A stretch of 64,000 nucleotides of DNA from Alphaproteobacteria bacterium (GTDB lineage Bacteria; Pseudomonadota; Alphaproteobacteria; Micavibrionales; UBA2020). Under the pieces are notes generated by a model. That model saw only the letters and a program-made list of their open reading frames with translations. It made no database searches and was not told the DNA's origin. Position numbers and translations under genes: made by a program. The DNA is taken from assembly GCA_041287865.1 (NCBI GenBank), contig JBGGMV010000066.1, positions 7,966 through 71,965 on the forward strand. The letters run 5' to 3'. Below, one piece after another: positions 18,707-53,899 of this stretch; positions within the stretch are counted from its first letter, which is position 1, and every line of letters begins with the position of its first letter.

Positions 18707-18715
18707 GAGGATCCC

Positions 18716-27461: not shown

Positions 27462-28460
27462 TCAGCGTTTTTTGTTGTTCTTTTTCGGGGCGGGTTTTGC
27501 CGTGCCCTCCGCGCGTTGCGCGGGTTTTTCCGTTTCGGGCTTGTCGACCTTCACCACGATATCGGGCTGGTCGTTGATGACCAGTTCGCCGCCCGCCAGC
27601 TGCTTGATCGTCGTGCCGTGGCCGCACATCTCGCTCACCTCGTTGAAGGATTTGATGGCGCGGTTGACGATGCGCTGATCCAGGTCTTCCTTCGCGGCGG
27701 CGACGATGAATTTCGCCAGCGCTTCGTGTTCTTCTTTTTCGGGCCCCGCGTCGCCGTATTCCTTCATCTCGTATTTCGTCATTTCCATGCCGGCGGCGGT
27801 ATTGGCGAGGAAAAGGCGTTTTGTATCCGGCTCCATGCCGCCAAGCTCCAGCAGGCGGACGTCTTCCTCCGGCGCCATCATCATGCGGTGCATTTCGTCG
27901 ACCATGCCGACCGTTTCAGGCTGGAACAGGCCGGTGATATCGTCGAAATTATCGGCGTCCATCAGCAGCGCCGCCGCCGTCATCGCGTCAACGCGCGCAT
28001 CGGGCATGCGGCCGCGATAGGTTTCCTCGATAATCCCGGCGGTAATCACATCGGCCATCGACAGGTTCGATACGTTTTCAAGCGCATCGCGGATTTCGCG
28101 GCGGCGCGGCAGCATGTGCCCTGCGGCGTCGAAGGTGCGTTCCTGCTCGGCGCGCATTTCCTGTTCCAGCTCGAACATGTCGTCGTCGCTCAAGGCTTCG
28201 TCGTCGTCGCCCAGCGGAATGTCGGTGCCGTCATCGTCGTCGGATTCAATGCTGATGCGGCGGCCCGTGCCGTCGATGCCGCGATAGGGCTCGAACTTCA
28301 GGTCGTCGGGGTTGAGTTTCGATTTGTCGGGTTCCGGTTTCGGCGGTTCGGGGTGCAGATCCTTGCCCACGTTCTCGTTATCATCAAACGAGAATTCCTT
28401 GCCCTTGCCGGTGGCGGCCTTGAAGGCTTTCTTCAGCTCTTTTTTGTCAGGCTCGGTCAT
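27462..28460 (-). CDS. Hypothetical acidic protein
   Basis: 332 aa, rich in D and E, with a Lys-rich C-terminus. It is on the same strand as, and downstream of, thyA-folA. Its stop codon abuts the P2 stop codon with zero spacer. Confidence 0.65.
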   Translation of the reverse strand: MTEPDKKELKKAFKAATGKGKEFSFDDNENVGKDLHPEPPKPEPDKSKLNPDDLKFEPYRGIDGTGRRISIESDDDDGTDIPLGDDDEALSDDDMFELEQEMRAEQERTFDAAGHMLPRRREIRDALENVSNLSMADVITAGIIEETYRGRMPDARVDAMTAAALLMDADNFDDITGLFQPETVGMVDEMHRMMMAPEEDVRLLELGGMEPDTKRLFLANTAAGMEMTKYEMKEYGDAGPEKEEHEALAKFIVAAAKEDLDQRIVNRAIKSFNEVSEMCGHGTTIKQLAGGELVINDQPDIVVKVDKPETEKPAQRAEGTAKPAPKKNNKKR

Positions 28461-29970: not shown

Positions 29971-30486
29971 TTAAGGTCTCGGCTGGCTGCCGGAGGGAGC
30001 CGGTGCCGGAGCGGGCGCCGTCTCGGCCGGCCCGCCGGCAACAGCGCCGGCAAAGGCCTCGGCCGCCGCGCCCTTGGCGGGCAGCTGCGCGCGTTGCGCC
30101 CTGTAAAGGTCCTGCGTTTCAGCCAGTTCGCGTTCTTTCTGGTCCAGCACGCTGTGATAACGGGCGGTCAGCTTGCCGTTGTCGATGTCGGCGTTGATAG
30201 CTTTCTGGGCGCGGTTGCCTTCCTTGACCATGGCGACGATGCTGGTGACCATGCTACCGGCAAAGCCGATCAGCAGGGGGATACCGACGGGGGGCGCCCA
30301 GACTGCGGCGAGAACGGACAGGATTAAAAAGACACCCGCATTCATTCCCGCCTTGCCGGCGATTTTGTCAGCCGTATCCATGACGGCGCGCGATGCCTTA
30401 AACACGGGGTGGGAGTTCGCTTCTTCGGCTTTGCGGTATTCGTCGAAGAAGGCTTCGTTGATGTCTTTTTTGAGTTGGTCGTCCAT
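29971..30486 (-). CDS. Hypothetical membrane protein
   Basis: Starts at MDDQLKKD after an AGAGGGA RBS. It has two central TM helices (GVFLILSVLAAVWAPPVGIPLLIGFAGSMVTSIVAMV) and an Ala/Pro-rich tail. Confidence 0.55.
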   Translation of the reverse strand: MDDQLKKDINEAFFDEYRKAEEANSHPVFKASRAVMDTADKIAGKAGMNAGVFLILSVLAAVWAPPVGIPLLIGFAGSMVTSIVAMVKEGNRAQKAINADIDNGKLTARYHSVLDQKERELAETQDLYRAQRAQLPAKGAAAEAFAGAVAGGPAETAPAPAPAPSGSQPRP

Positions 30487-30689
30487 TTTGAATGTCCCTC
30501 TGTCTTTATTATGAAAATTTGTATCAGTTATATGCGCCTTGTGCTTTGCTGTCAATTTTTAATAAAAAAATCTATAAATTACATATAGATAGAAGAATGA
30601 ATGTCTTCGGGAGGGAATCGCATTTGACATAATATTCCCAAAAATGATACCCTCATGCATTCATTTGCTTAACCCCAAAAGGGCCCTTC

Positions 30690-32105
30690 ATGGCGGAGAG
30701 CGACCAGACATCGACCGAAACCGCGCGTCTTCCGGCCGGCAGCCTTGTCGACAAGACGACGGGGAAGGTCCTCGGTCAAATATTGCTGGATAAACCGGAC
30801 AAAGGCCGCGCAGGTCGTCTCGCGCGCGCCGAGGCGGTCGCGCGTGTGGCGCGCCGCTGGCAGAGAGGGGATTTCCGCGCCTTCCAGCGCGGGCTTTCGC
30901 AGGCGCGCCGCGACAAGGACAAGGCCGCGCTGGAAAAGGCTTTCAACCTTGCCGCCGAAGTGCCGGTTTTCAAGGAAGCGCTCGACTGGGCGAAGGAAAA
31001 CGGCATCGAGTTCTTTGTCGACCGCACCTGCTCGAAATACGTGGGGGCCTATTACACCGGCACGACCGGCGTGATCGGCGTCAACCACCGCGCGCTGCAA
31101 AACCCGCAGCTGATGGCGATCTACCTGACGCATGAAATCCGCCACGCCTGGCAGGACGCGCATGGCATCATGGGCCATAGCATGAAACCCGATTATGCGG
31201 GCGAAGCGATCCGCACCGCGCTGGTCGAGGCCGACGCCATGGCCTTTGAAACCCTTGCCGCGCATCAGGCCGCGCGCGCCGTGCTGCAAAAACGGCAGGC
31301 TGAAAAAGGCCTGCCGCCCGACCTCGCCACCCGCCTGAAGCGCATGGAAAAGATGTGCGCCAATGCGGAAAGAGACCTCTGGCGCGGGTTTGAAACCTGG
31401 TTCCAGACGTCGCGTCCCTTCTTTTACTGCGAGGCGGTGGCGAAACGCGAGGCGACTGTGCTGGGGATAAGGGGCGAGGCGCCGAAAGACCACAAATATG
31501 AATTCAAGGCGATGATGATGCCGGGCGAGAAAACACGGCTGATCGATGTGACCGACGAGGCTGACTTCCAGAAGCTGGGCACGACTTTCTCGGGCGGCAA
31601 TTACCTGAACGAGAAGAAGCGCCGCGAATTCGTCAAGCATACCGTGAACAATCCGTCCCTTGCGCGCACCTTCTGGCGCGCGGGTGCGAAAACGCCGAAG
31701 CTCCTCACCGCGCTGCGTAAAAAAGAACTGCAGATGAAGCAGGACACGCCGCAACTGCATATCGACGCCACCGGCCAGCCGTCCGATATCCAGGCGCTGG
31801 CGAACCTGCTGGAAATAAAACTGAAAGCCCTGACGGAAGTGGAAAAGGTCGAGGCGGATAAACGCTCCAGCCTCATGCTTAATATGACGGTGACTTTCAA
31901 GAAAGGCATCGACCCCGTCACGGCCTTCCGCAACGCCGCCATCGCCCTCGACGGCCAGTGGGCGCATGTCGCGCCCTCGGTCATGAAGCTTTATATCGAG
32001 GGCATGAGCAAGACCATGTGGGGCGCGCGCGGGCGCCTTGAGCGCAACCCTTACCGCCCTCCCAATCGCACCCCCGGCCGCGTTATGCCTGCCGCAACCC
32101 CCTGA
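30690..32105 (+). CDS. Hypothetical protein with HExxH motif (possible zinc metallopeptidase-like)
   Basis: 471 aa with no signal peptide. The sequence LMAIYLTHEIRHAWQDAHG contains HEIRH, and an acidic residue run (EADAMAFE) follows about 40 aa later. Confidence 0.7.
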   Translation: MAESDQTSTETARLPAGSLVDKTTGKVLGQILLDKPDKGRAGRLARAEAVARVARRWQRGDFRAFQRGLSQARRDKDKAALEKAFNLAAEVPVFKEALDWAKENGIEFFVDRTCSKYVGAYYTGTTGVIGVNHRALQNPQLMAIYLTHEIRHAWQDAHGIMGHSMKPDYAGEAIRTALVEADAMAFETLAAHQAARAVLQKRQAEKGLPPDLATRLKRMEKMCANAERDLWRGFETWFQTSRPFFYCEAVAKREATVLGIRGEAPKDHKYEFKAMMMPGEKTRLIDVTDEADFQKLGTTFSGGNYLNEKKRREFVKHTVNNPSLARTFWRAGAKTPKLLTALRKKELQMKQDTPQLHIDATGQPSDIQALANLLEIKLKALTEVEKVEADKRSSLMLNMTVTFKKGIDPVTAFRNAAIALDGQWAHVAPSVMKLYIEGMSKTMWGARGRLERNPYRPPNRTPGRVMPAATP

Positions 32106-32174
32106 TATTGCGCCAAAACTGGCAAAGCCCCTGAAACTACTGGTTTTTTAATCTTTTTCCGCTATATTGAAGAT

Positions 32175-32536
32175 GTCCGGAGCAATCCGGACTATGACGA
32201 TAAACGCGCTATAAAATAGGCGAGACGGACCTGGGGGCGGTACCCAGCGGCTCCACCATTCTTCAAAAGGATTTGCGAAAGTTGTCTTCGCATCCGGTAT
32301 GGGGCCGAAATAGGATCGACGTGCGTAGTAAAGATGGTTGCTTTCGTCCGGCATTGTTCCGCCGTTATCGGGCTACTTTTATAAATGCTAACGACAACAT
32401 GCCCGCAAGGGCTGAACTCCGCCTCGTTGCTTAACAGCGACAACAGCGAAGTTGGCATTCAATTCCTAAGCTAGCAATAGCATAGGTGGGGCGTGGGGGC
32501 AGGCCTAGCAACAGAACTGCCCCCATTTTCTTTTTT
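32175..32536 (+). ncRNA. ssrA: Two-piece (circularly permuted) tmRNA; the 5' boundary is approximate
   Basis: The acceptor piece ends ...CTGGGGGCGGTACCCAGCGGCTCCACCA at 32258. The coding piece starts GGGGCCGAAATAGGATCGACG at 32301. GGGGCCG pairs with CGGCTCC, including the G3:U wobble. The tag ORF at 32387-32434 encodes ANDNMPARAELRLVA*. It ends in a hairpin at 32495-32524 plus a U-tract. Confidence 0.8.
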
Positions 32537-32563: not shown

Positions 32564-33367
32564 ATGAGCACCCCCCAGAAACCAGCCGTAAAAATGCCGG
32601 TTCTGGTCAGGATTATTTTCTGGAAGGTTCACTCGCGGCAGATGGCCCTGACATGGGTACGGGTTCTCGGGGCCCTTGGCCTCGTCTGCGCTTTTTTCAG
32701 TTTGATGTCGCCCCTCAACGTTTATTTGTGGGTGCCTGCTATCTACTCTTTTGCCGCTGGGGCCCTGTGCTGGTGGTTATTGAAGTGGTTTGACAGGAAC
32801 GGCGTCTGGCCCTCTGCAACGCCGTCCAAAGGCCTGATAGCGGCGGTCTGGTGCATCCCGGCGCTGGCCGCGCTGGTGCTGGCGACTCTTGAGTTCTTTA
32901 TCGGGATCCATCACTTCTCGCACAACGGCATGTATCCCGGCCTGCCGGCAAAGAGCGTGATTTTTACCAATAAACGCGCCTATGCGGCGCCGTCAGACGT
33001 CAAGCGGGGGGATATCGTTTACTTTACCCTCGAAACAGAGGAAGAAACATTCAAGTTTATCTTGCGCGTCATCGGCCTTCCGGGCGAAACGGTGAAGAAT
33101 GCCGGCGAGGCGCTTTCCATCAACGGGCAGCCTGTCAAACGGAAACTGCTCCGCAAGGCTGACGATACAACAATCTTCCGCGAAAGCATTGGCGAGGCCT
33201 CCTATGAGGTGGCCTTCGATAAGACCCCGCCCCGCAAGCCACTCGATGTGACAATTACCGTGCCGGCTGACGCGTTCTTCGTCATGGCTGATAACCGTCT
33301 TAGCGCTTTTGACAGCCGGTGGTTTGGGACAGTTCCGTTCAGTGCAATCATCGGCAAGAAGTTTTGA
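32564..33367 (+). CDS. Signal peptidase I (S26) homolog with N-terminal multi-TM region, apparently lacking the catalytic Ser and Lys
   Basis: It retains S26 boxes (RGDIVYF, LRVIGLPGE, FVMADNRLSAFDSRWFG). The SM-PTL box reads NGMYPGL and the K of the (I)KR-GLPGD box reads L. I placed the start at ATG 32564 because track ORF 32486 overlaps the tmRNA terminator. Confidence 0.75.
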   Translation: MSTPQKPAVKMPVLVRIIFWKVHSRQMALTWVRVLGALGLVCAFFSLMSPLNVYLWVPAIYSFAAGALCWWLLKWFDRNGVWPSATPSKGLIAAVWCIPALAALVLATLEFFIGIHHFSHNGMYPGLPAKSVIFTNKRAYAAPSDVKRGDIVYFTLETEEETFKFILRVIGLPGETVKNAGEALSINGQPVKRKLLRKADDTTIFRESIGEASYEVAFDKTPPRKPLDVTITVPADAFFVMADNRLSAFDSRWFGTVPFSAIIGKKF

Positions 33368-33375: not shown

Positions 33376-33404
33376 GGCGACGGCAGGGTCGCCCCGGTTT
33401 CTTT
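33376..33404 (+). terminator. Possible rho-independent terminator after the S26-like gene
   Basis: Stem ggcgac / gtcgcc with a 6-nt loop, then a T-rich run (ccggtttcttttcatttttt). Confidence 0.45.
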
Positions 33405-34445
33405 TCATTTTTTGGGCGTCAGCTTCAGCGGCTTTGAAACCTTCGCCGCCGTGTCCAGCGCCATGCGGAAATCGAGGTCGCCGTCCTTGTCGCAGAGCAG
33501 CCATGTCTGCCAGCCGCCGCTGCGGGCGTCTTTCGGCCTGACTTCCAAAGCGCCGTCGCTTTCCTTGCGCGTCACGAAATCGCCGGGGTGAACGACCTGG
33601 TAGATCGAGCCCGCGCCGGTGCCGAAGGTGTCGGCCGCCTGCCAGGCGCGGAAAGGGGTGGAGAGGGTATAGACGATATTTTTATCGCCCTCGGTCTCGA
33701 CGCGGGAAACGACGGTGCCGGAGCGGGGGCAGACCGCCCCTTGCGCGTATTCGGCGGCGGGCGATACATGCGAAAAGCTGATATCGGGCATGCGGCGGGG
33801 GTCGAGCGCATCGGCGGTTGTCATTTTATCGAGCATGCCCCTGCGGTCTTCCCAGACCACCAGCACCTGCCCTTCGGTGGCGACACCCTCGTGGTAGGAA
33901 GGTTTTCCTTCGTCGAAGCCCTGCCGCAGCGTATAGGCCTGCCCCGCCTTCAGCGGCACGACAAGGTAGCGGCTTTCGTCGCGGTAGTAGGAACAGTCGG
34001 AGAAATCGATGTCCATGAGCGGCATCAGGCGGGTCTCCGGCCTGCCCGGATAGTCGAGCGGCACCTGCTTGCTTTTGTCGGCGATCTGGTCGGGCACGAA
34101 GACCTGCCCGTCGGGAAAGGCGAAGGTCCACAGGCGCGGGAGGGCCTTGGTGACTTCCGTGGGCCTGTCGCCGCCGATGCCCGCATCGCGCAGCGCGCCG
34201 AACATCATCATGTCATGCGTCGACATCGTGACGCGGGGAAATTCGGAGAAACCGGGGTCGGTCTTTTTCATGCGCTTGACGAGGCTGGCCTCGAACAGCG
34301 CCAGCTGCTCGGGCGTGATCGCTGCGCCGTCGTGCTCGGCGGGCAGACGCTTCGCCCACCAGGCGGCCAGCGCCTGCAGGGCCGTGTCGGGCCACCAGCC
34401 CGATTTCGGCGCGGCCCTGCTGTTGAAAGCGTCGTTGCTGCTCAT
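33405..34445 (-). CDS. Hypothetical protein, tandem paralog Q1 (last of 4)
   Basis: 346 aa. It shares blocks with Q2-Q4 (ALAAWWAKRLP; IDFSDCSYYRDESRYLVVPLKAGQ; GQVLVV; PGDFVT). The C-terminus is KVSKPLKLTPKK. Confidence 0.75.
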   Translation of the reverse strand: MSSNDAFNSRAAPKSGWWPDTALQALAAWWAKRLPAEHDGAAITPEQLALFEASLVKRMKKTDPGFSEFPRVTMSTHDMMMFGALRDAGIGGDRPTEVTKALPRLWTFAFPDGQVFVPDQIADKSKQVPLDYPGRPETRLMPLMDIDFSDCSYYRDESRYLVVPLKAGQAYTLRQGFDEGKPSYHEGVATEGQVLVVWEDRRGMLDKMTTADALDPRRMPDISFSHVSPAAEYAQGAVCPRSGTVVSRVETEGDKNIVYTLSTPFRAWQAADTFGTGAGSIYQVVHPGDFVTRKESDGALEVRPKDARSGGWQTWLLCDKDGDLDFRMALDTAAKVSKPLKLTPKK

Positions 34446-35518
34446 GCGGGCGTTTTACCGGGAGTTAATTTCAAGGGCTTGCCGGCGGTGATCGGCTTGT
34501 CCAGCGCGTTCATCTCCAGCGTCTCGCCCCCGGGCGTGCAGGGGATGAAGCAGCTGAGGCCCCTTTCCATCGCGGCCTTGGGCAAGACGAAGTGCCGGTG
34601 GCCGCGGTCCATCTCCATCCGCGACACGAAGTCGCCGGGGTTGACGGTCTTGTAGTCGATGCTCCAGCCGGTGAGGAAGGTTTGCTTCGCCTCCAGCAGC
34701 TGCAGCGGGTGGGAAACCATGCGGTAGTGGCCCTTGTTGTCCAGTTTTTCCAGCGTGCCGTCGTAACCCTTGCCTTCCTTGTAGCTCGATTTCAGGCAGA
34801 CGGAGGCGGAGGTGACGTTCGGGTGAGACCGCAGGTCGAGCGCATCCGCCGCGGTCAGGCTGTCGTAGCCTTCCGTGCCTGCGGCATGGATGACCAGCAC
34901 GTCGTCTCCCTTTGCCTCCCGCTCCACGTAGGTCAGGGTGCCGTCTTTGGCGCGGCGCGGCAGCTGCACTTTCTGGCCGGCCTCCAGCTCGACAATCATC
35001 ATGCGGCTTTCCTGCCTGAACCAGAGCGCGCCGGTGAAATCGATATCGCCGTATTTGATAAAGGGCGTCGCGGGCTGCCCGCCATAGGCGAGGGGCTGGC
35101 CCGCGGCGAAAAGCTGCCCGTCGGTGTAAAGGCGCGTTTCCACGATGCTGGACTTCATCTCGTCATAGACATCGGGAATGCCCGCCCTTGCGCAGGCGTT
35201 TTTCAGCGGCGTCGAAGGGGCGCGGGTTGCGCCGGGCGGCTGGTTGTCGGCGTTGGTGACGTAAAGGCAGTTCGCAGGCGATTTGCTGGGCGGCACCTGT
35301 TTCAGCTCGTCCACCAGCGCCTCGGTAAAGGCCGCGCGCTGGGCAGGGGTGACGGTCGCGGTGATGATTTCTATCGACATGATGTCTGTTCCCACTCCCG
35401 TCTGGTATTCCTTGGGCAGTCTGTCCGTCCACCAGTTGGCGATCACGCGATACGTTTCTTCGGGCCACTTGAAGGCGTCGCTGGCGGCGTTGAACGCGGG
35501 GGTTTTTGTATCGGTCAT
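34442..35518 (-). CDS. Hypothetical protein, tandem paralog Q2
   Basis: 358 aa. Shared blocks are VIANWWTDRLP, IDFTGALWFRQESRMMIVELEAGQ and PGDFVS. The C-terminus is ITAGKPLKLTPGKTPA. It has a 4-nt ATGA overlap with Q1. Confidence 0.75.
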   Translation of the reverse strand: MTDTKTPAFNAASDAFKWPEETYRVIANWWTDRLPKEYQTGVGTDIMSIEIITATVTPAQRAAFTEALVDELKQVPPSKSPANCLYVTNADNQPPGATRAPSTPLKNACARAGIPDVYDEMKSSIVETRLYTDGQLFAAGQPLAYGGQPATPFIKYGDIDFTGALWFRQESRMMIVELEAGQKVQLPRRAKDGTLTYVEREAKGDDVLVIHAAGTEGYDSLTAADALDLRSHPNVTSASVCLKSSYKEGKGYDGTLEKLDNKGHYRMVSHPLQLLEAKQTFLTGWSIDYKTVNPGDFVSRMEMDRGHRHFVLPKAAMERGLSCFIPCTPGGETLEMNALDKPITAGKPLKLTPGKTPA

Positions 35519-36609
35519 GGGTTTTTGGCTCCGTTCATCTGTATCTGCAATGGCTTGCGGGTGGTGATGGGCTTGTCCAGCACGGTCGGGTCGATGAGTG
35601 TGCCGTCAGGCGTGCAGGGCTGCATGATGCGCCGGCCGTTTTCCGTCCAGCTTTTCGGGATGGCTTCGAACAAGTCGCCTTCTTTGGTCTGCAATTTCGA
35701 GACGAAATCGCCCGGCTGCAAGACGACATAGCCGTCCCGGCTGCGGGTGGCGAAGGCTTCGGTGACTTCCAGCATCTGCAGCGGGCCGGACAGTTTGCGG
35801 AACTGCCCCTTGTCGCCGACTTTTTCCAGCGTGCTGCCGGCGAGCGTGACGCCGTCGGAGAACGTGGCAGCATCCGCGATAAAGCAGTAGGGGATTTCGG
35901 GGTGGAGGTGCAGCCTGAACGCGTCCTCTGTCGTCAGCTTGTTGAAATCGGGGGTGTCGTTCGAGGGGATGACCAGCACCTTTCCCTCGCCCACACGCTC
36001 GGTTTCATAGACCCGCTTGCTGTCTTTCTCCCGCGCCAGCCTGCAGGTCTGGACCTTCTGCCCCGCATCGAGCGGTGCGACCAGGCAGCGGGTTTCCCGC
36101 CTGAACCAGCGGCAGCCGGTGAAATCGAGATCCTTCAGTTGCGTAAAGGTTGTGGCGGGCTGCGCCGCGTGCTCGATGCGGCCGTCGAGGTTGAAGATCT
36201 GCCCGTCGGCGTACAGCTGTGTCCACATGGTTTCAAGGCTGAAGAACGCGTCGAAGATGCCGGCTTTTTCAAGCGCGGCCTCCAGCGGCGCCGAATCCGC
36301 CCTGCCGCCGGGCGCATCGTGCGCGATGCAGTTGCTGTTGCTGACATAGATGAATTCGTTGCCGTAGCGGCCGGTGCGCAGGGGAACGGTTTTCAGCTCC
36401 TGCACAAAGGCGTCCTTGAAGGCGGCGAGATGCGCGGCGGTGACCTCGACCTTGACGGCTTTCTGGCCGACATCGTCGTCGCGGTCGTCGACAATGGTGA
36501 AGCTGGAGGGCAGCCGCCCTGCCCAGAATTCCGCCAGCGCGCGGGCGCTGGCGTCGCTCCACTGGGGCGGTCCGGCGTCGCTGGCGGCGTTGAAGGCGGC
36601 GGTTTTCAT
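35515..36609 (-). CDS. Hypothetical protein, tandem paralog Q3
   Basis: 364 aa. Shared blocks are ALAEFWAGRLP, LDFTGCRWFRRETRCLVAPLDAGQ and PGDFVS. The C-terminus is ITTRKPLQIQMNGAKNP. It has a 4-nt overlap with Q2. Confidence 0.75.
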   Translation of the reverse strand: MKTAAFNAASDAGPPQWSDASARALAEFWAGRLPSSFTIVDDRDDDVGQKAVKVEVTAAHLAAFKDAFVQELKTVPLRTGRYGNEFIYVSNSNCIAHDAPGGRADSAPLEAALEKAGIFDAFFSLETMWTQLYADGQIFNLDGRIEHAAQPATTFTQLKDLDFTGCRWFRRETRCLVAPLDAGQKVQTCRLAREKDSKRVYETERVGEGKVLVIPSNDTPDFNKLTTEDAFRLHLHPEIPYCFIADAATFSDGVTLAGSTLEKVGDKGQFRKLSGPLQMLEVTEAFATRSRDGYVVLQPGDFVSKLQTKEGDLFEAIPKSWTENGRRIMQPCTPDGTLIDPTVLDKPITTRKPLQIQMNGAKNP

Positions 36610-37715
36610 GCGGGCTGCCCCGGACGGTTGATTTTAAGGGGCTTCAGCGCGGTGATATCCTCGCCGGTCGTGGTGGGGTCGATCAAATTGCCTTTGTCGT
36701 CGGAGGCCAGCCAGCGGCGGGCGCCTTCCTTCAGCCATTCTTTTTTCACGACTTCGTGCCGCGCCTGTCCGTTCTCGACCGTGCAGGTCAGGAAGTCGCC
36801 GGGGGAGACGATCTGGTAACTGCGCCCGTCGCCGACGAAGAAAGGCGCCACCGCCGCCTTGGCGCGGAACGGCTTGCCGAGCGAGCGGTAATGGCCGGCG
36901 TCGCCGACCTTCTCGAACTTCTGGCCGAACTTGCCTTCGGGATTGGTGTAATCCGATTTCGGGTCGGTCATCGCGAAGGTGATATCGGGGTTCTTGCTCT
37001 GGTCGAAAAGATGCCGGCCGACGACGATATCGTCGAAATTCTTCGCGCCGGATTCAAAGATCACCAGCACCTGGCCTTCCTTGTCGACCGTTTCCTCGCG
37101 GTATTCCATCTTGCCCCAGCGCATCATGCCGGTGACGATCTTCTGCCCGACGGGAATATCGACCAGCAGGTAGCGGCTTTCGTCGCGGTACCAGTTGCAG
37201 CCCTTGAAATCGAGCTCGGCCGCGCCGGCCTGCGGGATTTTCGGGCGGTCGGGATGGTCGATGACCTTGCCCTCGGCGAAGGCCTGCCCGTCCTCGAACA
37301 GCGTGGTCGATGTTTTCCACGGCAGGGTGATCATGCCGTCGCCGATTCCCGCCGCCTTGAGCGCATTGGCCAGCGCCTCGCAGGGGTGGTAGTCGGTATT
37401 CAGCTTGATGCATTGCTGCTGCACATAGGTGCCACGTTCGCGCGGCGCCTGTTTCATTTCGCCGATCAGGGCTTCGACGAAGGCGTCATACTGCTCCTGC
37501 GTCACCTGAATTTTCAGCCGGTGTTTTTCCTTCATCGCCGTCACCTGCGCCACTTGGGCGCTGCCGCCGATATTGTCGAGTTCCTGTTTCGGAATGCCCA
37601 GCTGCTTCGCGCCCGGCAGGTGGTCGGCCCACCAGGTGGCGAGCGCACGGTAGCTGCCGTCGCTCCACTTCACGGGCGTGCTTTCCTCGTTGAATTGCTG
37701 GATTATTTCAGCCAT
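36606..37715 (-). CDS. Hypothetical protein, tandem paralog Q4 (first of 4)
   Basis: 369 aa. Shared blocks are ALATWWADHLP, LDFKGCNWYRDESRYLLVDIPVGQ and PGDFLT. The C-terminus is ITALKPLKINRPGQPA. It has a 4-nt overlap with Q3. Confidence 0.75.
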   Translation of the reverse strand: MAEIIQQFNEESTPVKWSDGSYRALATWWADHLPGAKQLGIPKQELDNIGGSAQVAQVTAMKEKHRLKIQVTQEQYDAFVEALIGEMKQAPRERGTYVQQQCIKLNTDYHPCEALANALKAAGIGDGMITLPWKTSTTLFEDGQAFAEGKVIDHPDRPKIPQAGAAELDFKGCNWYRDESRYLLVDIPVGQKIVTGMMRWGKMEYREETVDKEGQVLVIFESGAKNFDDIVVGRHLFDQSKNPDITFAMTDPKSDYTNPEGKFGQKFEKVGDAGHYRSLGKPFRAKAAVAPFFVGDGRSYQIVSPGDFLTCTVENGQARHEVVKKEWLKEGARRWLASDDKGNLIDPTTTGEDITALKPLKINRPGQPA

Positions 37716-37803
37716 TCGTTCCCCTTAAAAACTGCCCTCATTATAGTATCTTATGGTTAATATGGAGTTATCTCCCCGAAGCCCTTGTTTCCAGAGGATT
37801 TTA

Positions 37804-37832
37804 TTGACATAACCGCACCCTGCCGATAGTCT
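37804..37832 (+). promoter_or_regulatory. Sigma70-like promoter candidate for the 37862 gene
   Basis: TTGACA at 37804-37809, a 17-nt spacer, then TAGTCT at 37827-37832. An AAGGAGAG RBS lies just before ATG 37862. Confidence 0.35.
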
Positions 37833-37861: not shown

Positions 37862-38182
37862 ATGCCGATGGGCCCCGAGGAATTCGTCAAGGCGAACGAT
37901 TACACGCTGGTCGTCTCGCAGGTCTATGCGACCGAGAAACTGTCGAAGCCGACCCTGACCAAAATCTTCAACTTTGCTGCGCAGGAAGTCTCGACCATCT
38001 ATGAGCGCGGCTATGCCCGGGAAGGCATGGGCGTGGGCTTCGCCATCACCCGCGAGAGCAAGAATTTCAGCGAACTCGATAGCCTCGACGAAGTGGCGCT
38101 GATGCGCGCCAAGCTGGTCGACCTCGGCGGCCACCCGCCCGAGTTGCCGACCCTGTCGAAACCCCGCAAACTGGGCAATTGA
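37862..38182 (+). CDS. Hypothetical small protein, divergent from the Q array
   Basis: 106 aa with a strong RBS. The C-terminus (LPTLSKPRKLGN) resembles the Q/P-family tails. Confidence 0.55.
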   Translation: MPMGPEEFVKANDYTLVVSQVYATEKLSKPTLTKIFNFAAQEVSTIYERGYAREGMGVGFAITRESKNFSELDSLDEVALMRAKLVDLGGHPPELPTLSKPRKLGN

Positions 38183-38279
38183 GACTTATTCATAATCGCC
38201 CGAAAAGCGCGTGACAGTGTTAACGACTCTCTCTAAACTGGCACGGACTAAGTTAAGAAACACCGGAGCAAGTATTAAT

Positions 38280-38777
38280 ATGGCCCCCCGCAACCGAGAA
38301 GACGCCTTCCGCTACGACAAGATGGTCGAGAAGGCTTTGCGCGGCGTGGTCAAGCAGGCGCTGGCCGAGGTTGTTAAAGACGGTCTGGTCGACGACCACC
38401 ATTTCTACATCACCTTCTTCACCGACCGCCCGGGCGTGAAACTGCCGCCCTACCTGAAAGACCGTTATCCCGGTGAAATGACCATCGTGCTGCAGCACCA
38501 GTTCTACGACCTCGAGGTCGATGACGAACGCTTTACGGTGATGCTGTCCTTCAACAACGTGCCGGAACGCCTGACGATTCCGCTGTCGGCGATCACCATT
38601 TTTGCCGACCCCTCCGTCAACTTCGCGCTGCAGTTCCAGCCGCTGTCGGAAGAAGACGAAGACGAAATCCAGTTCGAAGCCGAAGAGCTTGATCTGGACA
38701 AGGACGACAAGGCGAAGAAAAAAGGCGAAGTCATTTCGCTCGACTCTTTCCGCAAAAAAGATAAAGACAAGACCTAA
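38280..38777 (+). CDS. sspB: SspB-family ClpXP adaptor (alpha-proteobacterial type)
   Basis: The sequence HHFYITFFTDRPGVKLPPYLKDRYPGEMTIVLQHQFYDLEVDDERFTVMLSFNNVPERLTIPLSAITIFADPSVNF is the SspB substrate-binding fold pattern. An acidic linker and a basic C-terminal ClpX-binding-like tail follow. I placed the start at ATG 38280. Confidence 0.78.
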   Translation: MAPRNREDAFRYDKMVEKALRGVVKQALAEVVKDGLVDDHHFYITFFTDRPGVKLPPYLKDRYPGEMTIVLQHQFYDLEVDDERFTVMLSFNNVPERLTIPLSAITIFADPSVNFALQFQPLSEEDEDEIQFEAEELDLDKDDKAKKKGEVISLDSFRKKDKDKT

Positions 38778-41778: not shown

Positions 41779-42000
41779 TATTCACGCGCTGGCATAGCAT
41801 TTGTTTTTTGTGCAAGAAAAATTTTCACAAACTGAACAAGCGTTCATTCGCTTGAGTTGTCCACAGCTACGCTTTGAAATGACTCAGGAAAATATTTTCC
41901 CTTGCATTGGCGAATCGATTTTGCGATTGTGCGCCTCACACAACCCCCGCGGCATTCATGTCGGGGGAGACTACCGAAGCGAAGCTGGAGATTAGATTTC

Positions 42001-42462
42001 ATGAACAACGGCATCGATGCCGGACGCCGCCAGAAATGGCGCGCGGAGATCGACGAGTCCAAGGTGGATATGGGCCTGATTGCGCCCATGGGCCAGCTTG
42101 CGCTCGATGTTTCCTTGTATACCGCTATCCTCGATAACGACCATCAGGCGATCCGCGCCATGGGCGCGGCGGGTGCCAACCCGAACATGTGGGTCGAAGG
42201 CAAGCTGGGCGAGCCCGAAGGCACGCTGCTCCACTTCGCCGCGCGCCATGCGCAGATGAAAACCGTGATTGCCTTGCTGCAGATCGGCGCCGATCCCTTG
42301 ATCAAAGACGCCGACGGCCGCATCCCGCGCCAGGTCGCCGCCGAAATGCCCACGGGCAACCGTCTCCGTTCCATGCTGCAATTGTGGGAAAAGAAGCGCT
42401 ATTCCCCCGTGCCGCAGCACGAAGAGAACGAGAACCGCGAAGAAGTCGCCCAACGCGCCTAA
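42001..42462 (+). CDS. Ankyrin-repeat protein
   Basis: Starts at MNNGIDAG. The sequence TLLHFAARHAQMKTVIALLQIGADPLIKDADGRIPRQVA is a clear ANK repeat, preceded by a degenerate repeat. Confidence 0.7.
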   Translation: MNNGIDAGRRQKWRAEIDESKVDMGLIAPMGQLALDVSLYTAILDNDHQAIRAMGAAGANPNMWVEGKLGEPEGTLLHFAARHAQMKTVIALLQIGADPLIKDADGRIPRQVAAEMPTGNRLRSMLQLWEKKRYSPVPQHEENENREEVAQRA

Positions 42463-44043: not shown

Positions 44044-46002
44044 GTGGTTGGGTTTACCAAAATGGCTGAAGATGCTACCGCAAAAGCAGGCGCTGCCAAG
44101 CCAGCGCAACCGAAACCGTCGGGTGGTCTGTCGATGAACCCGTCGCCTGAGGATCTGCTTGTGCCGCCCTCACCCCCCGCACCCTCGGCGGCTCTGCCTG
44201 TGTCGACGGGCGCCGCGATCACCATTTCCGGCGGCGCCAACGCGCCCGCCATGCCCGGCGCGGCAGGCCCCGGCACAGCCCCCGGCGGCGGCAAACGTAT
44301 CGGCGACCGCCTGCTGGAACGCGGCCTCATCACCGAAGACCAGCTCAAGGTCGCCCTGCACGAAAAGAAAACATCTTCAAAGCTGATCGGCGAGATCCTT
44401 GTCGACCTCGGCTTCATTTCCTCGACCGCGCTGTCCGAATTCCTGTCTGAATCCACGGGCCTGCAGCAGTTCGACCCCAAGAAAACGATGCTCGACCCCG
44501 AAGCGCTCGAGATGATCCCGAAGAAGGAAGCGCAGAAGTACCAGATCCTGCCCGTCTCCGTCGACAAGGCCGCGAACCGCGCCGTCATCGCCATGGTCGA
44601 CCCCTACGACGTGGTGGCGCTCGACAAGCTGAAGCAGCTGCTGCCCAAATCCTGCATGATCGTGCCGCAGATCTGCCCGCCCGCGACGCTGGCGGACGCG
44701 ATCCACAAGGCTTACGGCGTCTCCACCTCGATCGACGCGATTTTGAAGGAGCTTGCGGGCGACGCTTCGGCCGCGAAAAAGAACCTCGATACGCTGTCGG
44801 AGGCTGAATCTTATAGTCACCCGCTCGTGCGCCTTGTCAACGCGCTGATCTTCGAAGCCGTGAAAATGGGCGCGTCCGACTTGCACTTCGAGCCCGAAGA
44901 AAACTTCATCCGCCTGCGCTGGCGCATCGACGGCGACCTGATCACCTCGCACACGCTGCACAAGGAATACTGGAGCGGCATCTGCCAGCGCCTGAAGATC
45001 ATGGCCGAGCTGAACATCGCCGACAAATATTCGCCGCAGGACGGCCGCTTCAACCTGAACATGGGCGCGAGGGAAGCCGACTTCCGCGTCTCCTGCCTGC
45101 CGACCGTGCATGGCGAGAACATCGTGCTGCGCGTGCTCGACAAATCGGCGTCCATCGTGCCGCTGACCAAGCTCGGCTTCTCCGAACACAACCTGCGCAT
45201 CATCAAGAAGGCGCAGTCCCGCCCCGAAGGCATCATCATCGTCACGGGCCCCACCGGCTCAGGGAAAACAACGACGCTCTACTCGATGCTGAACGACGTG
45301 AACACGCCCGACGTGAACATCCAGACGCTGGAAGACCCGGTCGAATATAACCTGGGCATGATCAGGCAGTCGCACGTGAAAGAGGGCGGCGGTTTCACCT
45401 TCGGCGAGGGCGTGAAAGCGCTCCTGCGCCAGGACCCTGACATCATCTTCATCGGCGAGGTCCGCGACCTCGTGACCGGCGAGCAGGCGCTGAAAGCCGC
45501 CATGACCGGCCACCAGGTCTATACCTCGCTCCACACCAACGACTGCTTCGGCGCCGTGCCGCGCCTGGTCGACATGGGCCTGAAGCCCGGCATGATTTCG
45601 GGCGCGATTATCGCAACCTTTGCGCAGCGACTTGTCAGAAAGCTTTGCCAGAAGTGCAAGAAACCTGCGGCGGCCACGCCCGAAGAATGCAAGATGCTGA
45701 GGGACGGCCCCGACGGCAAGGCAATCGACCCTGCCAACCCGCCCACGATCTACCATCCCGGCGGCTGCCCGGATTGCAATAATACCGGCTTCAAGGGCCG
45801 TATCGCCTGCGTCGAGATCCTTTACTTCGACGACGATATGGACGCGCTGGTGGCGCAGGGCGCGCACAAGGCCGAAATGAAGAAAGTGGCGCTCACCAAG
45901 GGCTTCAAGAGCATGCTCGACGACGGCATCGTCAAGATCTACGAAGGCACGACCAGCCTTGATCAGGCCAGCAAGTCCCTGAACTTCGCCGACCGCCTCT
46001 AG
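44044..46002 (+). CDS. pilB: Type IV pilus assembly ATPase, PilB/GspE family, with MshEN/T2SSE_N-type N-domain
   Basis: Carries Walker A (GPTGSGKTTTLYS), Asp/His boxes and a C-terminal tetracysteine (CQKC...CPDC). The N-domain reads RIGDRLLERGLITEDQLKVAL / LIGEILVDLGFISSTAL. It has an Ala/Pro-rich leader of about 75 aa. GTG start, 11 nt after GGAGGA. Confidence 0.9.
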   Translation: MVGFTKMAEDATAKAGAAKPAQPKPSGGLSMNPSPEDLLVPPSPPAPSAALPVSTGAAITISGGANAPAMPGAAGPGTAPGGGKRIGDRLLERGLITEDQLKVALHEKKTSSKLIGEILVDLGFISSTALSEFLSESTGLQQFDPKKTMLDPEALEMIPKKEAQKYQILPVSVDKAANRAVIAMVDPYDVVALDKLKQLLPKSCMIVPQICPPATLADAIHKAYGVSTSIDAILKELAGDASAAKKNLDTLSEAESYSHPLVRLVNALIFEAVKMGASDLHFEPEENFIRLRWRIDGDLITSHTLHKEYWSGICQRLKIMAELNIADKYSPQDGRFNLNMGAREADFRVSCLPTVHGENIVLRVLDKSASIVPLTKLGFSEHNLRIIKKAQSRPEGIIIVTGPTGSGKTTTLYSMLNDVNTPDVNIQTLEDPVEYNLGMIRQSHVKEGGGFTFGEGVKALLRQDPDIIFIGEVRDLVTGEQALKAAMTGHQVYTSLHTNDCFGAVPRLVDMGLKPGMISGAIIATFAQRLVRKLCQKCKKPAAATPEECKMLRDGPDGKAIDPANPPTIYHPGGCPDCNNTGFKGRIACVEILYFDDDMDALVAQGAHKAEMKKVALTKGFKSMLDDGIVKIYEGTTSLDQASKSLNFADRL

Positions 46003-46124
46003 GCCAGCACCCCGCACGCCGTGACTCTGTATATTCCCGCCCTATATCTATTCCGGGGGCGAATATATTTCGTCGTGAGACCCGAATACAAGTGCTTGGT
46101 TTACCTTCATAATTGGTGTAACAC

Positions 46125-46142
46125 TATAAGGTGTGTTTTGGG
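46125..46142 (+). promoter_or_regulatory. Cluster cis-motif copy (TATAAGGTGTGTTTTGGG), upstream of pilC
   Basis: The 12-mer TATAAGGTGTGT is identical to 53882-53893. It lies 36 nt before the pilC ATG. Confidence 0.55.
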
Positions 46143-46177
46143 TCGTATGACACTACAGGGGGCGTTCGTCTTTAATC

Positions 46178-47392
46178 ATGCCTAAGTTCAGTTACAGGGC
46201 TATCAATCCGAAGGGCCGGCCGGTGCGGGGCGTTGTGAACGCCGCCAACGAGACGGATTTGTTCAATCGCTTGCAAGAAACGGGCATGAACCTGCTCGAC
46301 TGCAAGGAGATGAGCGAAAAATCCAACAAGCTGGCGGCCCTGACCGCCAAGAAGGTCAAGGTCCGCGACCTGATCCAGATGTTCGTCCACCTCGAACAGC
46401 TGCAGAAGGCCGGGGTTCCCTTGCTGGATTCAATTACCGACGTGCGCGACACCGCTGAATCGACCCGCCTGCGCGACATCATGAGCGATATTTACGCCGA
46501 AGTGACGGCGGGCTCCTCGTTCTCCAACGCGCTGGCCAAGCACCCCGGCACCTTCCCCGCCATCTTCATCTCGCTCATCAACGCGGGCGAGGAAACGGGT
46601 AACCTCACCAACTCGTTCGTGCAGGTCATCAAGCACCTGAAGTGGACGGACGCGATGGACACCAAGGTGAAAAAGGCGACGCGCTATCCCAAGGTTCTCT
46701 GCGTGGTCGTCGTCGGCGTTATTTACGTGATGCTGGGCCACGTCGTGCCCGAGGTCGTCGGATTCCTGCGCAACATCGGGCAGGAACTGCCGCCGATCAC
46801 GCAGGCGCTGATCTCCACCTCCGACTTCGTGGTGGGCTATTTCGGCTATATCATCGGCGTGATCATCCTCATCATGGTCATCCTGCGCGTCGGGCGCCTG
46901 ATGTCGGAGGATTTCAAGTACCGCACCGACTACATCGCGCTGCGCATGCCGGTGATGGGCAACCTGATCCGCAAAATCTCGCTCTCGCGCTTCTGCCAGA
47001 CCTTCGGCGTCCTCTTCACCTCGGGTCTCGAGATCCTGAAATGCCTCGAGGCCGCGAAGCAGACCTCGGGCAACCTCGTCATCACCGAGGCGCTGGAATC
47101 GGTCAAGACGCAGGTGCAGGAAGGCTCGGGCCTTTCCCATGCGCTCAACTCCTCGGGCGAATTCCCGTCGCTGGTCGTGCGCATGGTCAAGATCGGCGAG
47201 GAATCGGGTAACCTGACGGGCGTTCTGGAACAGGTGTCGGAATTCTACGACAAGGACGTCAACGAAGCCGTCGACGCGATGATCCAGATGATCGAACCCG
47301 CGCTGACCGTCGTGCTCGGCGGCATGCTGCTGTGGATCGCGGCCGCCGTCTTCGGCCCCGTTTACGACAGCTTCGGCAAGATGGGCGGATAA
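46178..47392 (+). CDS. pilC: Type IV pilus platform protein, PilC/GspF family
   Basis: 404 aa with two GspF repeats and 3 TM helices, including the (ESGNL) motif. Confidence 0.9.
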   Translation: MPKFSYRAINPKGRPVRGVVNAANETDLFNRLQETGMNLLDCKEMSEKSNKLAALTAKKVKVRDLIQMFVHLEQLQKAGVPLLDSITDVRDTAESTRLRDIMSDIYAEVTAGSSFSNALAKHPGTFPAIFISLINAGEETGNLTNSFVQVIKHLKWTDAMDTKVKKATRYPKVLCVVVVGVIYVMLGHVVPEVVGFLRNIGQELPPITQALISTSDFVVGYFGYIIGVIILIMVILRVGRLMSEDFKYRTDYIALRMPVMGNLIRKISLSRFCQTFGVLFTSGLEILKCLEAAKQTSGNLVITEALESVKTQVQEGSGLSHALNSSGEFPSLVVRMVKIGEESGNLTGVLEQVSEFYDKDVNEAVDAMIQMIEPALTVVLGGMLLWIAAAVFGPVYDSFGKMGG

Positions 47393-47395
47393 CGC

Positions 47396-49033
47396 ATGGT
47401 TGCGCTGGGCGGCGGCAAAAGGGTTCTTCTGGTCGGCGGCGAGGGCGTTGTGCTTTACGCGCCGCACGGCCGCGGCATGGAGCGCGAAACATCCATCTCG
47501 TGGGAAGTGCCCAACTTCGACCAGCAGCTGGCCGAGGCGCTTTCCGCCAAGAACCAGAGCAAGTCTGTCGTGGTGCTTTTCGACGGCACCGACCAGACCT
47601 ACCGCCGCGAGGAACTGGCCGCGAAACTTTCCATCATCGACCGCCCGAAATTCGTGAAGCGGAAACTCGAACTCGCCTTCCCGAGCTACCCGATCCGCGC
47701 CTCGCTTGAAATCAAGCCGCCCAAGAAAAAAGGCCGGCAGCCCAAGGGCGCCAAGACCGAGCTGCCCTCGTTCCTTTTCGTGGCGCTGCCCGAAACCGAG
47801 CAGCTCGACCGCATCGGCAACGCGATGTACGAGGCGGGCGTGCCCGTCGCGGGCTTCGGCCTGCTGCCGCTTGAATCGATGGGTCTCGTCAACGAGATGT
47901 CCGACAAGGTTTTTGGCGGCCGCGGCAAGAAATCGCGCTGGGCGGTGCTGGTCGGCCAGCATGAAACCGGCGGCCTGCGTCAGGTTGTGATTAAAGACGG
48001 CAACCTGGCGCTGACGCGCCTTACCCCGACGTCGGAAGCCGGCACCAGCGGCACGGGCTGGGTGGAAGAAGTCACGCGCGAATTGAAGGCAACGCTCACC
48101 TATATCTCGCGCTTCGGCTACAGCAACGACGACGGTCTCGACATCGTGGTCGTCTGCGGCGACGTGGAAAAACAGTTTTTCGACACCCGCGCCATCCCGG
48201 TCACCAATTTCCAGTGCGTCAACGTGTCGGAAGCGATGCGCCATATCGGCCTGCGTTCCTTCGGCATGGAGAAAAGCAATTTCGCCGACGCGCTGCACGC
48301 CGCCTGGGCGTCGCGCAAGACCGGGCTCAAGCTCGCGGTCAAGGTTCCCTCCATCCAGCGCATCATGGCGCCGCGCCTTGCCGCGCGCGTCGGCTCGGTG
48401 CTGCTCGCGCTCTCCATCCTCGGCCTGATGGGCTTCACCGCGCAGGGCTTCCAGGAATACCGCTCGCTCGAGGAAGAAATCGCCGGCAAGCAGAACCGCA
48501 AGACGATGCTCGACCGCGAATACGAGCAGGAGGCGAAGATCTTCGACACGCTGGCGGTCAAGCCCGATGTCGTCAAGGCCGCGCTGTCGGTCAAGAAACT
48601 GCTGGAAACCAACAGCGTCGACCTGCGCCCGATCCTGCATTCGCTGAAAAACACGCTGCCATCTGACGTTAGAATCGAGAACCTGAATATCGAGCACAAC
48701 GCCTCCAGCCACCTCAAGGTCGCCGATGCCTCCAGCGGCGCCGGGCTGTTCGGCGTGCCGGAAGAAGTCACCGACCCCGGCAAGGTGCGCATCAACCTTT
48801 CCTATTCGCTGCCGGACAACCTGATCCTCGAGCAGAAAGTGCTGCGCTCGGAAGACCTCCTGAAGAAACTGAAAACGGCCTTCCCGGGCTTCGAGGTCTC
48901 GCTGAAGAAGCAATTCGGCGGCGTGGAACGCACCGGCTCGGCCGTGGACACACTGGGTAGCCCTGCGCCGACTCCCGGCGGCGGCATGCTGGACCTGGCT
49001 GAAATCGAACTCAGGGGAGCGCCCCTCAAATGA
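47396..49033 (+). CDS. Pilus assembly protein, PilM-like cytoplasmic domain fused to a TM helix and PilN-like periplasmic domain
   Basis: 545 aa. The first ~330 aa look cytoplasmic, followed by one TM helix (VGSVLLALSILGLMGFTAQGF), a coiled coil and a periplasmic domain. It is positioned after pilC and before a PilO-like gene. Confidence 0.65.
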   Translation: MVALGGGKRVLLVGGEGVVLYAPHGRGMERETSISWEVPNFDQQLAEALSAKNQSKSVVVLFDGTDQTYRREELAAKLSIIDRPKFVKRKLELAFPSYPIRASLEIKPPKKKGRQPKGAKTELPSFLFVALPETEQLDRIGNAMYEAGVPVAGFGLLPLESMGLVNEMSDKVFGGRGKKSRWAVLVGQHETGGLRQVVIKDGNLALTRLTPTSEAGTSGTGWVEEVTRELKATLTYISRFGYSNDDGLDIVVVCGDVEKQFFDTRAIPVTNFQCVNVSEAMRHIGLRSFGMEKSNFADALHAAWASRKTGLKLAVKVPSIQRIMAPRLAARVGSVLLALSILGLMGFTAQGFQEYRSLEEEIAGKQNRKTMLDREYEQEAKIFDTLAVKPDVVKAALSVKKLLETNSVDLRPILHSLKNTLPSDVRIENLNIEHNASSHLKVADASSGAGLFGVPEEVTDPGKVRINLSYSLPDNLILEQKVLRSEDLLKKLKTAFPGFEVSLKKQFGGVERTGSAVDTLGSPAPTPGGGMLDLAEIELRGAPLK

Positions 49034-49683: not shown

Positions 49684-49684
49684 G

Positions 49685-52955: not shown

Positions 52956-52959
52956 GCCC

Positions 52960-53772: not shown

Positions 53773-53820
53773 ATATGTAAACGCAGATTTACCGTTTTTT
53801 CAATCAAAATAGGCTATCTT

Positions 53821-53837
53821 TATAAGGTACTGCAGGG
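53821..53837 (+). promoter_or_regulatory. Cluster cis-motif copy (TATAAGGTACTGCAGGG)
   Basis: This is the first of two copies in the pilD-pilT intergenic region, 61 bp upstream of the second. Confidence 0.5.
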
Positions 53838-53881
53838 AGTACAGGCGTTCATTTAAAAACCGTTACGCCCCTGACAGAGAT

Positions 53882-53899
53882 TATAAGGTGTGTGCAGGG
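53882..53899 (+). promoter_or_regulatory. Cluster cis-motif copy (TATAAGGTGTGTGCAGGG), upstream of pilT
   Basis: It lies 44 nt before the pilT GTG. With its flanks, GATTATAAGGTGTGTGCAGGGCTC closely parallels the copy upstream of the secretin gene. Confidence 0.55.

Follow-up and report, generated by a model that had tools for sequence, protein, structure and literature searches.

A 64,000-nucleotide stretch of an alphaproteobacterial genome of the Micavibrionales (UBA2020; assembly GCA_041287865.1, contig JBGGMV010000066.1, positions 7,966 to 71,965; hereafter the window) carries, between the transfer-messenger RNA (tmRNA) gene ssrA and sspB, one operon of four anciently diverged paralogs of three subtypes, which we call Q4 (Q4-type), Q3 and Q2 (both X-type) and Q1 (Q1-type) in their order in the operon. 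Their N-terminal domain can be placed by transitive homology in the BTG/APRO superfamily, a placement that carries no claim of BTG-like behavior, and it is followed by a beta-rich domain that is a candidate new fold and by a disordered, mostly basic tail. The proteins are annotated as hypothetical protein (ACAH80_09550/09555) and bear the same name at every source. We tentatively read them as a diversified, co-expressed set of binding proteins used in interaction with another organism, and weigh this below against an intracellular complex, a conflict-related array and an enzyme family.

The four minus-strand open reading frames (ORFs) lie exactly where a first-pass annotation, made from the sequence alone, had drawn them, with lengths of 346-369 amino acids (aa), and all three of their junctions are ATGA, a 4-nt stop/start overlap, as it had read them. 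The paralogy that it had judged by eye is borne out by BLASTP (E 2e-25 to 3e-68 at a dbsize of 1e8), with 29-38% identity over nearly the full length, and the alignment of Q1-Q4 (A1) has 47 invariant columns and contains every one of the motif blocks listed there: FNA..S...W...ALA.WW..RLP, DF..C..YR.ESR...GQ, VLV(I/V), PGDF and KPLK(L/I). A tblastn search of the window returned exactly four Q copies and no fifth. A G+C content at third codon positions (GC3) of 0.82-0.84, together with ratios of nonsynonymous to synonymous substitution rates (dN/dS) of 0.27-0.45 against orthologues from other metagenomes (0.27 for Q4 against its 77%-identical orthologue in locus L004), indicates that Q1-Q4 are real, selected genes, which by these measures evolve fairly fast under moderately relaxed purifying selection. 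The absence of a signal peptide or transmembrane (TM) helix, also proposed earlier, agrees with hydropathy, as no TM or signal-like hydrophobic stretch is found in Q1-Q4 (maximum Kyte-Doolittle 19-residue mean ≤1.04). Within the array a strong Shine-Dalgarno sequence (AAGGGGA) is present only at Q4. The sigma-70-like promoter 5' of Q4 is a weak match (9/12), no better than chance in the region, and is hence a candidate only. A hairpin downstream of Q1 probably marks the end of the transcript; its T-run lies on the plus strand only, so that termination of the minus-strand array transcript at this point is what we infer. Four-nucleotide overlaps are common elsewhere in the genome (at thyA/folA, between the ABC ATPase and permease genes, and more besides); thus, they establish the operon organization but nothing special to the Q array.

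The first-pass annotation could assign the proteins to no family. This still holds for the C-terminal domain, whereas the N-terminal domain corresponds to phrog_8937 and thereby belongs with the BTG/Tob APRO superfamily; likewise, profile searches left Q1-Q4 without a match in Pfam, NCBIfam or the PDB sequences, as novelty of the family had implied, while phrog_8937 and, by structure, Tob1 were recovered for the N-domain. Individually, Q4 matches phrog_8937 at E 3.4e-9 and Q2 at 5.1e-4; Q3 is subthreshold at E 0.033 and Q1 has no match, and an equivalent N-domain is nonetheless present in Q3 and Q2 and, in shortened form, in Q1. The connection is much stronger at the level of profiles: with hhalign, the 31-member Q family aligns to a set of 67 stand-alone proteins (99.6%, E 1.3e-23, 125 columns) through residues 16-150 of Q4. 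These stand-alone proteins, listed as P0043-P0151, are ~135 aa long and match phrog_8937 with E values down to 7e-23. Thirteen of the 67 also match Pfam BTG (PF07742), with a best E of 3.5e-11; their profile, searched against the PDB sequences, retrieves BTG2 or Tob1 as all of its top five matches, over residues 18-117; and hhalign aligns the profile to a BTG2 fragment (78%, E 1.8e-5). For example, the stand-alone P0131 reads LPWKTLMWIDPGRVSV where BTG2 reads LPSELTLWVDPYEVSY. The stand-alone members that resemble BTG2 most closely keep all the prokaryotic hallmarks, WWA, VDYxPD, LPWKT and GYGAP, which excludes contamination. A Foldseek search with the Q4 model also returned Tob1, as a moderate match (prob 0.82, TM 0.51). 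In contrast, neither Q1-Q4 nor the 31 full-length members match Pfam BTG even at E values up to 1, and a direct hhalign comparison of the Q-family profile with BTG2 is insignificant (prob 1.4%); the BTG link therefore rests on the intermediates.

Work on BTG/Tob proteins has treated them as regulators of mRNA deadenylation and cell proliferation in eukaryotes, and in the literature searched we found no description of prokaryotic or phage homologs. The N-terminal ~135 residues of the Q proteins appear to have the same alpha/beta core as BTG2/Tob1 (PF07742) and the same order of motifs, namely a ..F..AL.. helix, a CI(R/K)(I/L)N-type strand, a (D/H)P...L..A...G(I/L) helix, LP... (box B) and DG, and, like BTG1/2, they show no catalytic or RNA-binding signature. 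They differ in being bacterial and below the Pfam BTG threshold, in apparently lacking the box-B Trp (discussed below), in an extra helical insert and a WWA..LPG N-terminal motif, and in the fusion of the domain to an unrelated beta domain of ~200 aa. The nearest prokaryotic comparison is phrog_8937, with which the Q N-domain shares the WWA, VT.EQ..F, DY.P and LPWKT motifs. However, phrog_8937 is a single-domain family on the mobile elements of Firmicutes phages and Clostridium plasmids, while in the Q proteins, which are encoded on the chromosome in tandem arrays, the domain is extended by the C-domain and tail. The stand-alone members also keep a box-B-like LPWKTxMW(I/V)xP motif, in which the Trp corresponds to the residue that contacts CAF1. 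They are found in the early/accessory region of Faecalibacterium phages, between methyltransferase and replication genes (e.g., phage FP_Toutatis AUV56739.1, MG711466.1 12538-12930), and in a run of small unidirectional ORFs on the Clostridium botulinum plasmid pCLK (NC_010418.1 147405-147974). A search of BFVD added three significant, uncharacterized viral matches, which, judging by their ~165-190 aligned columns, appear to concern the N-domain.

The C-terminal domain has ~200 aa. AlphaFold2 (AF2) models of Q4 (from 7 sequences; predicted local distance difference test [pLDDT] 80, predicted template modeling score [pTM] 0.72) and Q1 (from 31 sequences; pLDDT 89.2, pTM 0.80) agree on a compact beta-rich domain of ~13 strands, placed between the BTG-like domain and a disordered tail. 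This domain models confidently yet matches nothing in Pfam or the PDB, which makes it a candidate new fold: Foldseek searches with both models against 350,542 PDB chains gave nothing above prob 0.11 besides the Tob matches, a Pfam scan of the 31 members found no recurrent family, and among PDB sequences nothing meaningful matched the A1 or A4 profile. Matches to PaRep2b, holin, C_Hendra and S_layer_C (E >0.01) were inconsistent among the paralogs and were taken as chance, and no internal duplication of the C-domain was detected. It might be a new catalytic or metal-binding fold acting via D169, E179 and D307, with R277 and K325, in which case the BTG-like domain would serve to bring it to a complex that holds its substrate. 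This would suit the confident, globular models of Q4 and Q1 and the wide conservation of these residues among the 31 members (D307 in all, D169 in 26, E179 and R277 in 23 each, K325 in 20). On the other side, G306 and D307 alone are invariant in all 31, which leaves a single strictly invariant polar residue; these two sit in a PGD beta-turn and look structural; and neither sequence nor fold comparison matched the proteins to an enzyme family. With so few conserved residues, too few for a confident catalytic site, and no catalytic signature evident, as the first-pass annotation had also found, an enzyme or metal site is a possibility to which we give little credence.

The tail has a pLDDT of <50 in the AF2 models and differs markedly in composition from the rest of the protein. 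The last 20 residues are Pro-rich and positive in 27 of 32 members (mean +2), whereas the body is acidic (mean -11.7), and a net charge of at least +2 is reached by the tails of 21 of the 32 as against 12% of internal windows. The clade that forms arrays keeps KPLK(L/I) within this disordered segment. We take a basic, disordered tail of this kind to resemble the signals of VirB/D4-type type IV secretion systems (T4SS); its lack of structure and positive charge would fit a feature of VirB/D4-type T4SS substrates, in a permissive sense only. The KPLKL motif was also considered, in view of the nearby sspB, as a ClpX/SspB docking peptide and set aside, as it bears no resemblance to the C-terminus of the SspB encoded in the window and homologs elsewhere are not near sspB.

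Proteins of this kind form a real and very rare family. Among 5.8 billion proteins, a word-indexed search found three relatives besides the Q proteins themselves and no more, to which a rerun with a broad alignment added nothing useful. HMMER, run exhaustively over 1.84 billion cluster representatives with a 7-sequence profile, returned 204 proteins at E ≤1e-3, of which about 45 are full-length and 21 reach E ≤1e-30. Sorting 153 retrieved sequences by separate hidden Markov models of the N- and C-domains yielded 43 with the Q architecture of N- plus C-domain (including P0004, which has an N-terminal extension), 73 stand-alone N-domains of ≤200 aa, 27 in which the N-domain is fused to other unassigned regions and 10 with the C-domain only, mostly fragments. 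Among the fusions, P0057 (753 aa, from a Logan contig) joins an N-terminal OTU cysteine protease (deubiquitinase) to the BTG-like domain, while P0053/P0055 (592-623 aa) have, by eye, long hydrophobic, glycine-rich, TM-like C-terminal regions; their composition, again by eye, resembles that of low-GC intracellular bacteria. The full-length architecture is absent from the annotated phage, plasmid and IMG/VR collections, on which ground an origin of the full-length protein in mobile elements was rejected. Nor did Pfam support a ParB-like nature of the ORF upstream of P0004 (locus L006), which would have implied a conjugative element. The sole return of a scan of GTDB genomes, a 27-residue Paenibacillus match (L005), was judged to be chance.

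The related loci show which aspects of the array are conserved. Three of them, L013 (GCA_964575605.1), L014 and L016, are syntenic with the window in having thyA-folA, the DUF6782 gene and a tmRNA with the identical tag ANDNMPARAELRLVA. In each of these a Q1 orthologue (62% identical in L013 and L014, 46% in L016) lies next to the tmRNA, at a gap of 8-128 bp, and is directly preceded, via an ATGA overlap, by an X-type paralog; in L013 the array is exactly these two genes, followed by Cupin_2, DUF421 and sspB. In L004 the order is X, a Q4 orthologue (77%) and a Q1 orthologue (70%), again with ATGA at all junctions. The four-gene arrangement, which the first-pass annotation had named as something to look for in related genomes, is therefore not conserved, being X-Q1 in L013, L014 and L016 and X-Q4-Q1 in L004; the arrays at this one chromosomal position differ in gene order and in copy number (2-4). 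Their conserved features are the location beside ssrA, with the Q1 orthologue always the ssrA-proximal gene, the ATGA coupling in every related array and the pairing of the Q1-type with at least one other paralog. In a neighbor-joining tree the Q4-type, the X-type (including Q3 and Q2) and the Q1-type are all older than the genomes compared, which supports the earlier view of old paralogs retained as one coupled transcription unit. Outside this clade, distant full-length homologs are single-copy among unrelated housekeeping genes: after aroC in L001, between a PNP_UDP_1 gene and sodB in L007, between ilvA and ilvB in L011, and between ahpC and terD in L017. One relative, in a 30%-GC Rickettsiaceae metagenome-assembled genome (MAG), sits among giant ankyrin-repeat proteins. 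No conserved neighbor or partner gene emerged from the loci compared.

This pattern bears directly on whether the paralogs are obligate subunits of an intracellular hetero-oligomer, at a minimum Q1-type plus X-type, that arose by duplication of a homo-oligomeric ancestor. Coupling would then keep the stoichiometry of a complex, for instance a scaffold with a regulatory or adaptor role whose BTG-like domains dock a partner. The presence of ATGA at every junction in every array seen, the other paralog directly preceding the Q1-type in four independent genomes at Q1 identities of 46-70%, the retention of three subtypes over a long divergence, the purifying selection on all tested pairs and the lack of a signal peptide or TM segment in Q1-Q4 are all in keeping with such a complex. 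However, the homologs of other lineages are single-copy, which indicates that paralog partners are not intrinsically required; the variation in number (2, 3 or 4) and order (X-Q4-Q1 as opposed to Q4-Q3-Q2-Q1) is of a kind that a machine of fixed stoichiometry would not normally tolerate; and the 4-nt overlaps are, as noted, generic in this genome. We regard a hetero-oligomer as a serious candidate but, on balance, a doubtful one.

Variable numbers of head-to-tail, diverged paralogs are also typical of poly-immunity or orphan immunity arrays, and the Q proteins could be immunity or inhibitor proteins, each directed against a different toxin or nuclease of a competitor, phage or defense system. 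The BTG-like domain would in that case act as a nuclease-binding inhibitor, and the locus would be analogous to poly-immunity loci. BTG2 is known to inhibit the DEDD nuclease CAF1 in vitro (PMC11774319), and the phage early/accessory regions and Clostridium plasmid ORF runs that harbor the stand-alone N-domains are typical anti-defense territory. The tandem diverged paralogs evolve fairly fast and are acidic, with isoelectric points of 5.4-5.9, which would also suit such a role. Yet no toxin, Rhs/CdiA, type VI secretion system or defense gene is found next to the array or the examined homologs, with neither a toxin nor a delivery gene adjoining it in the window or in L001, L007, L011, L013, L016 and L017. 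PADLOC gave no match for Q1-Q4, P0004, the stand-alone domains or the neighbors, and no match to an immunity or defense family was obtained. The Q proteins, with two domains and ~350 aa, are also large for immunity proteins, and their full-length architecture is missing from the phage, plasmid and IMG/VR collections. Thus, an immunity array seems unlikely.

We return to the account that we favor while holding it with less than even confidence, namely that the paralogs are a diversified set, expressed together, through which the bacterium interacts with another organism, and that they may leave the cell by means of the basic tail. From the lack of any match to an enzyme, defense or structural family and of any catalytic constellation, we infer binding rather than catalysis; the Q proteins would be noncatalytic binders or adaptors, made together from one mRNA by translational coupling. 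The BTG/Tob(APRO)-like domain would serve as a protein-docking module that also circulates in stand-alone form in phages and plasmids, each paralog would recognize a different partner through its diverged surfaces, and the set would be used in dealings with the other organism, be it host or prey, possibly after export via the C-terminal tail. Our leaning toward an interorganismal role comes from how the family is scattered across lineages, from the fusions and the ankyrin-rich setting of relatives, and from the tail and the precedent of PieF. The occurrence of distant homologs as scattered single genes without conserved neighbors is typical of effectors, and, like the paralogous Dot/Icm effectors of Legionella, the Q family combines lineage-specific expansion and a lack of conserved neighbors with a eukaryote-like domain and a disordered, charged C-terminus; some relatives have, as in effector families, an OTU deubiquitinase fusion or an ankyrin-rich context. 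Legionella PieF, an effector of an intracellular bacterium, targets the BTG partner CAF1/CNOT7 (PMC11774319, PMC12255788), although PieF has no homology to BTG and engages another surface of CNOT7 (PMC11774319). A more specific and distinctly improbable version would have the Q proteins as exported BTG/APRO effectors that dock a DEDD-type nuclease of the host or prey, such as the eukaryotic CAF1/CNOT7 of CCR4-NOT or a bacterial RNase T/D-like enzyme, with the diversified paralogs retargeting or inhibiting it, and, more broadly, phrog_8937 as the prokaryotic root of the animal BTG/Tob domain.

Several observations weigh against an exported, diversified set. The proteins lack a signal peptide and the array has no secretion system linked to it, a type IV pilus cluster being all that the window holds in this regard; tight coupling in one operon is itself unusual for effector paralogs. 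The box-B Trp (W103 of BTG2, a CAF1 contact) is apparently not kept in Q1-Q4, as read by eye via the alignments: Q4 reads LPWKTSTTLFEDG in this region and Q1-Q3 are more divergent, so that the position is not conserved. The host clade is known from MAGs only, many of which encode a PheS 85-93% identical to that of the window. The stand-alone N-domains in Firmicutes phages point to a purely prokaryotic role somewhere, a hetero-oligomer would explain the strict pairing of the Q1-type and the coupling at every junction no less well, and the widely conserved acidic residues D169, E179 and D307 allow for an enzyme or metal site.

The chromosomal setting of the array (Table 1) is as first described, between ssrA with an S26 signal-peptidase-like ORF on one side and sspB on the other. 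The permuted, alpha-type form of the tmRNA is in line with the alphaproteobacterial label of the genome. The S26 homolog does look degenerate: by eye, HNGMYPGL stands in place of the catalytic Ser motif SGSMxPTL and LRVIGLPGE in place of the catalytic Lys motif KR..G.PGD, so that it is probably a pseudo-peptidase. The suggestion that it is a co-occurring member of a system with the Q genes was not borne out. The syntenic loci L013, L014 and L016 have no such gene, in the window it starts 37 nt past the 3' end of the tmRNA, and homology between the loci stops exactly at that end; the absence and the break in homology together indicate that it is no partner of the array. It looks like a lineage-specific insertion of a single gene at ssrA, without an integrase. 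An integrated genomic island at ssrA carrying the array was likewise rejected, since there is no integrase and the array occupies the same site in relatives. The DUF6782 gene lies directly upstream of ssrA in all the syntenic genomes (10838-12190 in L013, 1927-3348 in L016). The 106-aa ORF is absent from L013, which has DUF421 and Cupin_2 genes instead, and the sspB-ssrA interval is a variable hotspot in the clade. Farther along, a type IV pilus-like cluster occupies 44044-58219 on the plus strand. An ankyrin-repeat ORF is located at 41902-42462 (plus), and in L014 a 1171-aa ankyrin-repeat protein adjoins folA (5851-9366); such proteins are not usual in free-living alphaproteobacteria, which hints at a life in association with a host. 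Sizeable ORFs without Pfam matches are located at 27462-28460, 29971-30555, 6579-7649 and 18191-19471 on the minus strand and at 3457-4737 on the plus strand, and the one of 332 aa among them is highly acidic and of low complexity with a Lys-rich C-terminus. The lineage is rich in orphan proteins.

Table 1. Features of the Q array and its surroundings, in positions of the window
Feature	Position	Strand	Basis
Q4, operon gene 1, 369 aa, Q4 subtype	36606-37715	minus	ORF call
Q3, 364 aa, X subtype, ATGA overlap with Q4	35515-36609	minus	ORF call, junction read, tree
Q2, 358 aa, X subtype, 38-40% identical to Q3, ATGA overlap with Q3	34442-35518	minus	ORF call, junction read, tree
Q1, 346 aa, Q1 subtype, final array gene	33405-34445	minus	ORF call, AF2 model, orthologues
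BTG/Tob(APRO)-like N-terminal domain of Q4, residues ~16-150	37266-37670	minus	phrog_8937, hhalign, Foldseek
Beta-rich C-terminal domain of Q4, residues ~151-345, defining family module	36681-37265	minus	no Pfam, PDB or Foldseek relative
Disordered basic/Pro-rich tail of Q4 with KPLKI motif	36609-36680	minus	pLDDT, charge
Candidate sigma-70-like promoter 5' of Q4, TCGGCA-17-TAAAAT	37798-37826	minus	consensus scan
GC-rich hairpin between convergent Q1 and S26-like genes	33376-33393	unassigned	hairpin scan
thyA-folA, upstream flank of ssrA region	overlap at 29057-29060		gene order
194-aa ORF without Pfam family, between thyA-folA and DUF6782 gene	29971-30555	minus	gene order
DUF6782 putative metallopeptidase-like gene	30690-32105	plus	gene order
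Alpha-type permuted tmRNA (ssrA)	32136-32527	plus	tmRNA search
S26 signal-peptidase-like ORF	32564-33367	plus	Pfam Peptidase_S26, 7.7e-30
106-aa ORF, divergent from Q4, no family match	37862-38182	plus	ORF call
sspB	38211-38777	plus	family scan
ABC transporter after sspB	overlap at 39532-39535		gene order
PilB-like ATPase with MshEN domain	44044-46002	plus	type IV pilus-like cluster
T2SSF/PilC	46178-47392	plus	type IV pilus-like cluster
545-aa ORF without Pfam match, inside pilus cluster	47396-49033	plus	Pfam
TPR protein	51207-52955	plus	type IV pilus-like cluster
Two PilT-like ATPases	53943-55175, 55172-56296	plus	type IV pilus-like cluster
Secretin	56300-58219	plus	type IV pilus-like cluster

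The finding is thus genuine, yet there is no multicomponent system with the S26-like gene. The Q proteins can be described as a new bacterial variant of a BTG/APRO-domain protein, joined to what may be a novel fold and multiplied into a tandem array of coupled genes. The most valuable by-product of this work is that a branch of BTG/Tob in prokaryotes and phages can be recognized, which raises a possible prokaryotic origin for the domain and would offer a handle on its ancestral function and partner. The C-terminal domain is a candidate new fold in its own right. The fixed site, the conserved coupling and the 2-4 members drawn from three old subtypes constitute a clean natural experiment in paralog diversification in a clade of uncultured alphaproteobacteria. 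If the Q proteins do turn out to be effectors, or the subunits of a complex, they would represent a new class of either.

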